IMG/VR virus record: IMGVR_UViG_2558860170_000007
Reading direction: 5' to 3' (one strand)
DNA: 48,271 nt
Source of the DNA: a virus
Lineage: Duplodnaviria > Heunggongvirae > Uroviricota > Caudoviricetes
Positions 39,021 to 43,114 of the stretch are shown piece by piece. Each line of letters starts with the position of its first letter. Position 1 is the stretch's first letter. The notes under the pieces are model-generated. The model was not told where the DNA came from, searched no databases, and was given only the letters and a program-made list of their open reading frames with translations. A program made the translations under genes and the position numbers.

Positions 39021-39183
39021 GATTCCTCCTTGCTGCCAGTCGCAACCATTTTTTATCAACCAGGCTAGCGGTATATCCGAGCAGTGTTGGTATTTCGGAT
39101 GGCTTCAGCTCAGGCTTACGCTTACGACGATTTGATACTCTGTAGATGTGCCCGTTCATGACACGAATAAGCGGTGTAGCCAT
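39013..39183 (-). CDS. ninE: NinE-like small protein
   Basis: 56-aa [59 protein letters not shown]; start overlaps the ybcN stop (TAATG) and stop lies 3 nt after the ybcO ATG; not in the ORF track (under 60 aa). Confidence 0.6.
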   Translation of the reverse strand: MATPLIRVMNGHIYRVSNRRKRKPELKPSEIPTLLGYTASLVDKKWLRLAARRNHG

Positions 39184-39638
39184 TACGCCTCCTGCTTATC
39201 GCGCAGCTGCTGGTATTCACAGCTCTGCGGAATTGTCAGGTGGCAGCCGATATTCATCGCCCAGGCTTCGACTTTGCACAGGAAGATGTACATCTCGCCG
39301 GTTTCCAGCTCTGACGTATGGCGGAGGGATTGGACGGTGGTGACCTCGCCGGACACGACATCTACACGGTCTTTGCTTTCGTAGCCGAGATAGGTGTGCT
39401 TCATCGCGTCTTTGACCCACTCAGGCGTAGCGAAGGTCTTGCCGCGGGCGATGAGATATTCGCTGATCTCCGTGTACCACATGTGGCTGAGCGCGTTCTG
39501 CGACAGGCTGCGCTTCTCGCGCCACGGCTTAACCTGCAGGCGTAAGCATTGCCCGGCATCCAGCAATGGCTGAATCTGCTGGCCGATGGCCGCGAAGTTA
39601 CCGCGATGGAGTTTGATGCCGTCTACTGGCAGAGTCAT
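39183..39638 (-). CDS. ybcN: YbcN/NinB-like nin-region protein (DUF1367-type)
   Basis: 151 aa, MTLPVDGIKLHRGNFAAIGQQIQPLLDAGQCLRLQVKPWREKRSLSQNALSHMWYTEISEYL... Confidence 0.65.
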   Translation of the reverse strand: MTLPVDGIKLHRGNFAAIGQQIQPLLDAGQCLRLQVKPWREKRSLSQNALSHMWYTEISEYLIARGKTFATPEWVKDAMKHTYLGYESKDRVDVVSGEVTTVQSLRHTSELETGEMYIFLCKVEAWAMNIGCHLTIPQSCEYQQLRDKQEA

Positions 39639-39902
39639 ACGGCCTCCCTAACGGAAACCGCAGAATGCAGAAAATCGCAGGTGCATTTCTGCATCTGTGA
39701 CAAGGTGATGAGTTCAGATTGTGGTCGCATTTAAGTCCCCTTAAATGCGCAGAAGTCACCGGAGTTGTTCAGGCTCCGATGAGAGGATTATGGCGGATTG
39801 ATTACGATAAATCAAAACTATCTTGAAGCCAAAACAGTGATCTTCGCTTTAAAAACCTTGTATACTTTCACCTAATCACAGCCAGAACTATGGATCTAAC
39901 CA

Positions 39903-40280
39903 ATGACCAACAAAGAAAACAAAGATAAATATATTAACAAGTTCAAGAAAGAGCTTTCAAAATATATACAACCAACTGCTGGAGTGGACATTCAATTATT
40001 TAACTCTAAGGATGGTGGTGGTGTAATTAAAGCCACTTTGAATAGAAGTGGAAAAAGAAAATCATCTATTGCTGGTAATTTTACTAAATTAGGTGAGGCA
40101 ATTACCTCGAGTGGGCAGAGGGTTTTTGGTGGTGATCTATCAAATGTGAATTTTTACGGAACAAATACGATTTTTGATGGAGATACAATATTTTTAATTA
40201 AATCACCTGATTCAGAGGAGTGGTCATCACAAAAAGCTTCCAAAGACGTAGAGGGCATCGTATTTGGAGGGAAAAAATGA
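39903..40280 (+). CDS. Uncharacterised small soluble protein, first gene of an AT-rich two-gene cassette
   Basis: 125 aa; Lys-rich N-terminus, Gly-rich motifs (SKDGGGV, VFGGD, IFDGD, VFGGKK); no TM segment; TATACT -10-like hexamer at 39861-39866 upstream; no family recognised. Confidence 0.6.
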   Translation: MTNKENKDKYINKFKKELSKYIQPTAGVDIQLFNSKDGGGVIKATLNRSGKRKSSIAGNFTKLGEAITSSGQRVFGGDLSNVNFYGTNTIFDGDTIFLIKSPDSEEWSSQKASKDVEGIVFGGKK

Positions 40281-40705
40281 TTAACATTACTACTAAGGAT
40301 GGCACTCAAGTCAGTGGTGAAGTAAGAGATCTAGTAATTCTTCTTGAAACTGATGGAAAAACGGTGTCTGATTATTTGCAGCCAATCCCTCCCAAAAAAG
40401 ATACACACTGGAGCATGATTTTCATTCCGGTAGCAATTTATATACTACTTAATCTTGTATACATTATTGCTCACCCATTATTTCCTGAAAAATATCTAAA
40501 AACATCAACATCTATATTTCTATTCATTTCCTTCATATTAAGTGCAATAGTAGCATATTTTGTTTTCCATAAGCATAAATCTGCCACTCTATCCATATGC
40601 AGCTTAGTGTTCTTAGTGTTAATTGTAGGTGCTAACGTAGGGTTTATCAGTTACAGCGACCTAACACAAAAAGCGACGCAAAAATTAGATAGTTTGTCTA
40701 AATAA
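40277..40705 (+). CDS. Uncharacterised small membrane protein (about 3 TM helices), second gene of the cassette
   Basis: 142 aa from the ATG at 40277 (GGAGGG Shine-Dalgarno 5 nt upstream; ATGA overlap with the stop of the upstream gene); about 45-aa soluble N-terminus then three hydrophobic helices. The ORF track gives an upstream alternative start at 40220. Confidence 0.6.
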   Translation: MINITTKDGTQVSGEVRDLVILLETDGKTVSDYLQPIPPKKDTHWSMIFIPVAIYILLNLVYIIAHPLFPEKYLKTSTSIFLFISFILSAIVAYFVFHKHKSATLSICSLVFLVLIVGANVGFISYSDLTQKATQKLDSLSK

Positions 40706-41144
40706 TTATGTTGCCATGCGAAGTATGCATGGCTGCATGTCTGCCTTCCATTTAAAATGGGCTAAGACCTATAACCCTAAATATTATTCTTTATTATCTT
40801 CTTTACCACTTCGGTGATGCTGCCAACTTACTGATTTAGTGTATGATGGTGTTTTTGAGGTGCTCCAGTGGCTTCTGTTTCTATCAGCTGTCCCTCCTGT
40901 TCAGCTACTGACGGGGTGGTGCGTAACGGCAAAAGCACTGCCGGACATCAGCGCTATCTCTGCTCTCACTGCCGTAAAACATGGCAACTGCAGTTCACTT
41001 ACACCGCTTCTCAACCCGGTACGCACCAGAAAATCATTGATATTGTCAGCGCCAGTGATATAAGACGGTAATTCGCCATTTGGATTGTCCGCTCCACCCA
41101 ACATGTTGTTTCCTTAAGGTTCTCACACCAGAAAGGACATCAAC

Positions 41145-43114
<1,970 letters not shown>

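Follow-up and report, generated by a model that had tools for sequence, protein, structure and literature searches.

A recurrent leader region upstream of the nin operon of lambdoid prophages, with conserved predicted RNA hairpins and a small overlapping reading frame

The segment immediately upstream of the first gene of the nin operon in lambdoid phages has been noticed twice, in 1996 in phage 82, where it was partly annotated, and in 2012 in phi80. The phage 82 record (X92588; Mahdi, Sharples, Mandal and Lloyd 1996) has a homologous segment directly 5' of orf151/ybcN, with the same -35 and -10 sequences, the same H1 dyad, described there as a "possible regulator-binding site", the same ribosome-binding site (RBS) and a small overlapping open reading frame (ORF). 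The phi80 record (JX871397) marks an inverted repeat, IR4, upstream of the ybcN homologue PHI80_53; it is annotated as a repeat only, and the small ORF is left unannotated. At the homologous place, the K-12 derivative C600 has a 33-codon hypothetical-protein coding sequence overlapping the ybcN start, which we identified as ylcH. None of the literature that could be searched for ylcH, the phi80 IR4 repeat or promoters of the nin region contained functional work on the element. Here we describe the corresponding region of a 48,271-nucleotide (nt) sequence of a Caudoviricetes virus (IMG/VR record IMGVR_UViG_2558860170_000007), the whole of which is called the window below.

The window is a DLP12-like lambdoid prophage with the nin operon (ybcN, ninE, ybcO, rusA, ylcG, quuD) on the minus strand. 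On this strand, positions 39635-39817 have counterparts in the orf33 region of phage 82, in K-12 ylcH and in the "IR4" region of phi80. They probably form the promoter-proximal leader of the operon, and the module, portable and about 180 bp long, is found in many lambdoid phages of Enterobacteriaceae. Comparison of the homologues shows three predicted hairpins (H1, H2 and H4) kept by compensatory substitutions, together with an ORF of 31-33 codons and a stop/start overlap with the next gene. From these features we propose, with moderate confidence, that a two-step translational gate at the nin leader would control the first nin gene. The original prediction for this locus had singled out two inverted repeats (IR-A and IR-B) between ybcN and a two-gene cassette on the opposite strand, as operators or RNA hairpins that could regulate either the cassette or the nin operon. 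Judged by homology, both palindromes are parts of the conserved nin-operon leader and not of the cassette: the phage homology runs from ybcN to about 39817 and then stops.

Layout and spread of the nin leader

The features on the nin side of the region, all on the minus strand, are the following.

39183..39638, minus strand: ybcN, Orf/NinB family, first nin gene (Pfam NinB, E value 3.6e-5; RefSeq: YbcN family protein)
39635..39730, minus strand: leader ORF of 31 codons, ylcH / phage 82 orf33 family, MRPQSELITLSQMQKCTCDFLHSAVSVREAV (from the ORF list and homology)
39639..39661, minus strand: hairpin H4, GCGGUUUCC / GGAGGCCGU (predicted fold -15.5 kcal/mol, z score -4.5)
39665..39694, minus strand: inverted repeat IR-A, AUGCAGAAA-N12-UUUCUGCAU, inside the leader ORF (predicted fold -13.4 kcal/mol in the window)
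39726..39749, minus strand: hairpin H2, the same as IR-B and phi80 "IR4", with a 10-bp stem (predicted fold -13.3 kcal/mol, z score -6.7)
39756..39782, minus strand: hairpin H1, UCAUCGGAG / CUCCGGUGA, loop CCUGAACAA (predicted fold -12.5 kcal/mol, z score -4.8)
39787..39815, minus strand: sigma-70 promoter-like site TTGATT (39815..39810)-17-CATAAT (39792..39787), found by consensus scan with 9 of 12 matches
39798..39815, minus strand: dyad TTGATT-N6-AATCAA over the -35 hexamer and spacer, read from the sequence, a candidate protein-binding site

IR-A (ATGCAGAAA-N12-TTTCTGCAT) lies exactly where the original prediction had placed it, with arms at 39665-39673 and 39686-39694. IR-B (CGCATTTAAG-N4-CTTAAATGCG) has the predicted sequence, but its arms are at 39726-39735 and 39740-39749, one base to the right of the predicted 39725-39748. 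The 48-kb window contains about 15 perfect inverted repeats whose arms are 9 nt or longer and whose loops measure 3-20 nt, or 0.087 per 263 bp; among 2000 dinucleotide-preserving shuffles of the 263 bp between ybcN and the cassette, 1.45% had one such repeat and 0.2% had two. Because these frequencies are so low, the presence of two repeats in 263 bp is real and beyond chance. Both do lie within the 263 bp, but the description of that segment as a pure intergenic spacer fails, since it holds most of the minus-strand ORF of 31 codons (39730..39635), which overlaps the ybcN start and contains IR-A. The prediction had passed over three nin-side dyads (H1, H4 and TTGATT-N6-AATCAA) and the minus-strand promoter-like site.

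Phi80 IR4 is IR-B exactly, in its 10-nt arms as well as in its 4-nt centre. The versions in phage 82 and K-12 differ more from that in the window: the H2 arms are CGCAUUUAAG in the window against GCGCUAAACG with a bulge, the H4 arms differ too, the window ORF has 31 codons rather than 33 and another N-terminus, and the upstream neighbour is the divergent two-gene cassette in place of ybcM of K-12. The RefSeq annotation of CV839-06, which is identical across the stretch, does not include the conserved small ORF here.

The module has a constant order, which in the nin sense is the dyad, the -10 hexamer CATAAT, H1, a linker GACUUCUGCGC, H2, the small ORF with its conserved core, IR-A, H4 and an ATGA or GTGA overlap. 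It recurs in at least 160 lambdoid phage or prophage loci of Enterobacteriaceae; IMG/VR was scanned for an invariant 21-mer and, separately, for a pattern anchored on the linker between H1 and H2, and each scan gave at least 120 loci. A scan of one genome per species yielded 32 loci, almost all from Escherichia, Enterobacter, Citrobacter, Trabulsiella, Lelliottia, Huaxiibacter, Scandinavium and Pseudescherichia. The enterobacterial 21-mer and the full module were also seen on short contigs labelled Kocuria (L154), a Planctomycetaceae metagenome-assembled genome (L156) and an Oxalobacter metagenome-assembled genome (L178), whose taxon labels most likely reflect assembly or binning contamination.

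Matches to the region are present in 2778 of 5426 complete E. coli genomes, mostly over query positions 16-178 at 76-88% identity and beneath an annotated "hypothetical protein"; at least 80% of the 263 bp is covered in only 46 of the 5426. Genomes of O157:H7 have the same module at 88% identity, and matches in a phage collection include phage 82, phi80, HK639, HK225, CobraSix and others. The sequence 5' of the -35 hexamer is unrelated between phages, and the gene downstream is of the ybcN type, the NinB type or another type.

Some phages (L032, L118, L033, L135 and L099) have the module twice, 2-4 kb apart. The two copies of L032 are at 2273-2428 and 4584-4747; copy 1 has a truncated leader ORF and is followed by a hydrophobic ORF of 49 codons, a Bro-N/P22_AR_C (P22 antirepressor-like) gene, a HEPN gene and an ORF of 133 codons, and copy 2 heads ybcN. 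Since the module has been duplicated ahead of other genes, it would act like a portable expression cassette.

Conserved hairpins, leader frame and promoter-like site

Plain MAFFT alignments put variants of H1 and H2 out of register and were therefore not used for pair counts. These counts were taken from a covariance model with four helices, built from ten gap-free sequences, to which 101 matches were aligned. Because the fit of this alignment followed the model's own structure, its paired percentages are inflated: 96.2% of the cells are paired, compared with 83.9% after shuffling (none of 500 shuffles reached the observed value) and 36-46% when the partners were slid by 1-3 columns. Independent folds and the slid controls agree with the covariance-model alignment despite this fitting bias. 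For the window itself, the four predicted hairpins (H1, H2, IR-A and H4) have z scores from -4.1 to -6.7, and the whole leader folds at -61.6 kcal/mol (z score -4.5).

H2 corresponds to the IR-B palindrome. Its GGGA loop and the adjoining AAG make up the Shine-Dalgarno sequence of the leader ORF (AAGGGGA, 39742..39736, 6 nt 5' of the AUG), and the AUG itself (39730..39728) is in the 3' arm. At least six arm variants exist, all of them complementary, and the loop GGGA is invariant; 7 of the 10 pairs have changed on both sides, and 97.3% of the cells are paired. The suggestion that the palindromes are RNA hairpins regulating the nin operon thus stands for IR-B, with its compensatory changes in at least six variants, its Shine-Dalgarno loop and the ORF start in its 3' arm; by these comparisons IR-B is a well-supported conserved RNA hairpin.

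H1, which adjoins or sits at the predicted 5' end of the transcript, is the phage 82 feature whose annotation proposes a DNA regulator site, whereas the covariation found here points to RNA. All of its 46 stem variants give the same fold, with a stem of 9-14 bp and a loop of 7-9 nt; 7 of 9 pairs have changed on both sides, with 97% of the cells paired in the covariance-model alignment, and the phi80 stem is fully compensated (CUGCCAG / CUGGCAG). Single-sequence folds of 50 distinct 5' leader variants contained H1 and H2 in every case. Two further interactions were considered and dropped because the partner sequences vary among variants, namely a pseudoknot or kissing contact of the H1 loop with the Shine-Dalgarno sequence or the ORF, and a competition between CUUCUGC and GCAGAA.

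The 5' arm of H4 is the 3' end of the leader ORF, and its 3' arm holds the ybcN Shine-Dalgarno sequence GGAGG (39647..39643) and abuts the ybcN ATG (39638..39636). Single-sequence folds recovered H4 in all 84 distinct variants, masking the Shine-Dalgarno sequence whichever first nin gene follows; both sides have changed at 7 of 9 pairs, and 96.6% of the cells are paired.

The strand of these structures can be judged from the counts of G.U and A.C cells, since a G.U pair of one strand is an A.C mismatch in the other. The ratio of G.U to A.C cells is 95:12 in H1 and 212:0 in H4, and this G.U excess identifies both as RNA structures of the nin sense strand; the ratio for H2 is 8:12. For H2, the nin sense strand is indicated by the start codon in the 3' arm and by the loop with its invariant Shine-Dalgarno sequence.

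The leader ORF ends in a TGA that overlaps the ybcN ATG (ATGA at 39638..39635). An open frame of 31-33 codons, with an AUG or GUG start in the 3' arm of H2, is kept in 82 of 94 distinct homologues, of which 54 have ATGA as the overlap and 28 have GTGA. Its N-terminus comes in three unrelated types, and its tail tracks the Shine-Dalgarno sequence of the downstream gene. Retention of the frame and the overlap, the N-terminal types and the tracking tail together argue that the leader ORF is translated. The peptide had zero matches in Pfam, PADLOC and PHROG searches.

IR-A behaves differently. Only one of its nine pairs has changed on both sides (in 2 cells), and five pairs depart by mismatches alone; the 3' arm drifts without compensation, and in several phages of a sample anchored outside the ORF the 5' arm is swapped (ATGCTTAAC, ATGCTTATC, ATGCTTAGC) while the 3' arm is constant. 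The 5' arm belongs to a near-invariant core of 24 nt, CACAGATGCAGAAATGCACCTGC (39675-39698, minus strand; peptide SQMQKCTC), which is invariant even at synonymous positions, whereas its flanks are only 70-80% identical. IR-A therefore appears to be a by-product of a conserved coding core; neither a selected structure nor the RNA-hairpin reading is supported for this repeat.

The promoter-like site on the nin side has a predicted start near 39780-39782, and X92588 annotates putative -35 and -10 signals at the same positions. Across 103 homologues the TTGATT and ATAAT columns are nearly invariant and the flanks vary. Among 129 distinct upstream variants, 80 have the overlapping dyad in perfect form and 92 have the shorter TTGAT-N8-ATCAA, always exactly 5 nt before the -10 hexamer, which is CATAAT in 79 of these 92 at a fixed distance. 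The AATCAA half lies within the spacer, where a sigma-70 promoter demands no specific sequence. We infer that TTGATT-17-CATAAT, together with the dyad that overlaps it, acts as an internal promoter that is weak or regulated, and TTGATT-N6-AATCAA is the best operator candidate of the region. An FNR site was considered and rejected, as it requires TTGAT-N4-ATCAA and the spacing here is N8.

Other phages have a non-homologous extended -10 sequence (TGnTATAAT; TGTTATAAT) at the same place. At six loci (L011, L036, L046, L071, L106 and L124), about 90-50 nt 5' of the GACTTCTGCGC linker, TTGATAATCATTTTTCAAAAGTGATGTTATAAT with an extended -10 stands in place of TTGATT-N6-AATCAA/CATAAT. Part of TTGATAATCATTTTTCAAAAGTGATGTTATAAT may resemble a Fur box. 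A perfect-stem intrinsic terminator lies just 5' of the module in 12 of 138 variants; this is the only count retained from the scripted survey of all loci, whose tallies of -10 and -35 hexamers were discarded because they often took ATAATC inside the dyad. The RNA of K-12 ylcH is detectable and is about 2-fold higher in microaerobic conditions (PMC8910356).

Proposed translational gate and alternative explanations

The arrangement of H2, the leader ORF and H4 suggests the following two steps. H2 would lock the leader start codon into a stem of about -13 kcal/mol, with the Shine-Dalgarno sequence exposed in its loop, and would thereby limit translation of the leader. H4, in which the 3' end of the leader ORF pairs with the ybcN Shine-Dalgarno sequence, would keep the ybcN RBS closed. 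A ribosome finishing the leader ORF would melt H4 and restart at the ATGA, which may be the main route to ybcN translation; the latter would thus be coupled to, and capped by, translation of the leader. H1, whose UGAAC loop is conserved, is most simply seen as a 5' stem-loop that stabilises the RNA or binds a protein.

Several points weigh against this gate. Each of its mechanistic steps is read from sequence, and the covariation behind it comes from the fitted alignment described above. The pair counts for H2 do not identify its strand. The pairing of H1 reaches 2-6 nt 5' of the predicted transcription start and covaries there, which suggests that H1 acts also, or instead, in transcripts that read through from the early promoter. 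Neither the gate nor the peptide or IR-A explains why the 24-nt core hardly varies at synonymous sites. Finally, K-12 rusA, which lies 3' of the homologous leader, is silent unless the insertion of an insertion sequence (IS) brings a promoter (PMC4118853; PMC10956419); this implies a native promoter that is weak or repressed, or termination downstream of it.

The last of these possibilities leads to a transcription attenuator, in which, with the leader untranslated, IR-A or its inner hairpin with a U-rich tail, or Rho, would stop transcription before ybcN, and translation of the ORF would relieve the stop. We consider this unlikely, although it is compatible with the gate. A terminator scan flags 39693..39676 (minus strand), a 5-bp stem followed by AUUUUCUG, and the fold of IR-A in the window has the stability given above; but the stem of IR-A has only three G-C pairs with a poor U tract, and the repeat is not maintained, with a single covarying pair of nine, many mismatches and a 5' arm that is swapped in some phages. 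The weak 5-bp sub-hairpin is the only intrinsic terminator candidate in the leader, and H1, H2 and H4 have no U tracts. Cheng, Court and Friedman reportedly found Rho-dependent terminators in the lambda nin region in 1995, which would favour the attenuator, and silent K-12 rusA is likewise compatible with early termination (PMC4118853). That the hairpins belong to a small or antisense RNA of the plus strand, leading to the cassette promoter region or starting from it, is extremely improbable. The plus strand does fold better than its shuffles (z score -3.1), but on that strand the G.U pairs turn into A.C mismatches, and 62 of 90 homologues fold better in the sense than in the antisense orientation; moreover, the consensus scan gave no properly placed plus-strand promoter or terminator, and Rfam gave no match. 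With Rfam 15 at the gathering score, the whole window matched only IS009 and a transfer RNA (tRNA), both elsewhere, and a permissive scan of 39560-39920 returned chance-level matches alone (E value at least 1).

Two other explanations work at the level of DNA. The segment could have no regulatory role and persist as a conserved linker, a repeated crossover point for homologous recombination between lambdoid phages. The homology does start abruptly just 5' of the -35 hexamer and end at a varying first nin gene (ybcN-type, NinB-type or other), and phi80 and DLP12 are known to recombine within diverged nin regions (PMC3945230). Recombination alone, however, gives no compensatory changes in three helices, strand-specific G.U excess, invariant Shine-Dalgarno loop or kept frame with its overlap, and we judge this explanation improbable. 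Still less probable, in our estimate, is that the palindromes are DNA operators, with a dimeric repressor (the prophage's own, a host protein or one of the P22 c2 type) on IR-B and/or H1 blocking nin transcription in the lysogen. The phage 82 depositors read H1 in this sense, the G.U to A.C ratio of H2 is neutral, and the dyad TTGATT-N6-AATCAA over the -35 hexamer is a genuine operator candidate. In the IR-B arms ATTTAAG / CTTAAAT all 14 half-site positions also agree with the P22 c2 operator consensus ATTTAAGATATCTTAAAT (PMC5175364), and the 4-bp spacing is correct, but the centre is GGGA in IR-B against the AT-rich ATAT of P22. Against an operator function, the arms of H1 and H2 change and their centres are invariant, the reverse of what an operator would show; the 95 G.U cells of H1 would be mismatches in a DNA palindrome; and the module travels with many different immunity regions. 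IR-B, moreover, lies about 40-60 nt 3' of the predicted start, and neither IR-B nor IR-A overlaps a promoter, both being in the transcribed leader or ORF, whereas TTGATT-N6-AATCAA does. Contigs with the ATTTAAG variant have no other P22-type operator cluster, and no P22-type immunity region or repressor was seen in them; a search of the phage collection with the region gave no P22 record. A functional P22 c2 link was accordingly rejected: companion operators are missing, other variants lose the half-sites and still pair, the centre is invariant, and a second match lies at the end of an IS3 element. The match of IR-B to the P22 c2 consensus is probably a coincidence. Its 14/14 core spans 39729-39746, and the second site, CTTTAAGCCATCTTAAAT at 4125-4142, matches at 13 of 14 positions just 5' of an IS3-family orfA (3899-4120, minus strand), with no repressor gene beside it.

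The translational gate thus remains our preferred reading of the leader. A broader proposal, which we put forward only tentatively and hold to be doubtful, is that the roughly 180-nt module represents a cis-regulatory unit widespread among lambdoid phages and so far undescribed. It would combine an internal promoter, perhaps regulated by a protein, with a leader RNA made of a 5' hairpin with a conserved UGAAC loop, an ORF whose start is masked and a downstream RBS that is masked as well. Such a unit might control antitermination-independent expression of nin and ultimately of Q, and H1 and/or the 24-nt core might bind a specific factor, from host or phage, that decides whether the prophage leaks the late-gene activator. 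The nin region separates the replication genes from the late-gene switch Q, and its expression without N-type antitermination bears on prophage stability, on the recombination functions Orf/YbcN and RusA, and on toxin release by Shiga-toxin phages. The leader offers one possible explanation for the silence of K-12 rusA despite a good-looking promoter upstream. As a leader supported by covariation, it is a candidate entry for an RNA-family database, and its roughly 180 bp make a defined target for mutation.

The cassette side and comparison with known systems

Upstream of the module, the sequence belongs to the cassette.

39818..39902, plus strand: cassette-specific upstream region, covered in few genomes; homology to other phages ends at about 39817

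The TATACT hexamer of the original prediction is present at 39861-39866, 36 nt before the ATG of cassette gene 1 at 39903, and lies within a conserved block of 19 nt, AAAAACCTTGTATACTTTC (39851-39869). This block is identical amid diverged flanks in the L117 allele, which is about 88% identical and has the same junction with the module. To regard TATACT as the -10 hexamer of the cassette is therefore reasonable from the sequence, as far as an identical block in an allele diverged by about 12% can indicate; the consensus scan, however, missed the site and found no acceptable -35 hexamer for it. Two promoter-like sites thus stand back to back, about 45 bp apart. The idea that the palindromes regulate the cassette was not borne out, as neither repeat is the cassette's.

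The cassette genes (39903-40280 and 40277-40705, plus strand) overlap by ATGA at 40277-40280. Their proteins match only PHROG 18061 and PHROG 16940, both without assigned function; PADLOC gave no match for the cassette, nor did Pfam at the curated score cut-off. The sequence of gene 2 suggests a multi-pass membrane protein. The whole cassette has a high AT content and is oriented against the early-right operon; in CV839-06 it lies between P and ybcN, and gene 1 is cut by IS1. Directly 3' of the cassette (40868-43114) the window has an IS1 insA-like fragment (40868-41071) and a complete IS21-type istA/istB pair (41145-42317 and 42314-43114). In CV839-06 the cassette is followed by genes for replication and immunity, which are displaced in the window strain. 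At the left of the window, a tRNA gene (2575-2646), an integrase-like ORF (2775-3968) and an Rfam IS009 match (6987-7185) suggest a separate integrated element.

The leader has partial counterparts among described regulatory RNAs. Its promoter-proximal H1, with a conserved loop in an operon under antitermination, recalls ompA-type 5' stem-loops, boxB and HK022 put, and by this analogy we infer a stabilising role for it. H1 is not of the boxB/nut type, since it has a stem of 9-14 bp and a loop of 7-9 nt rather than a 5-bp stem with a GNRNA pentaloop, and the boxA-like CGCTCTTA is not in the leader. The module is present in phages with different antitermination systems, including HK639, which presumably uses put-type antitermination. 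The ATGA packing seen at the end of the leader ORF has been described for nin genes (PMC8022706).

A structured leader with a coupled small ORF is a known kind of element. Coupling through a masked RBS, which the upstream ribosome has to open, operates in MS2 coat/replicase and in mok/hok, and the nin leader resembles these systems in having a stop/start overlap and an RBS paired with the upstream coding sequence. It differs from them in that the upstream cistron is a dedicated one of 31-33 codons, with its own masked start, and serves non-homologous genes.

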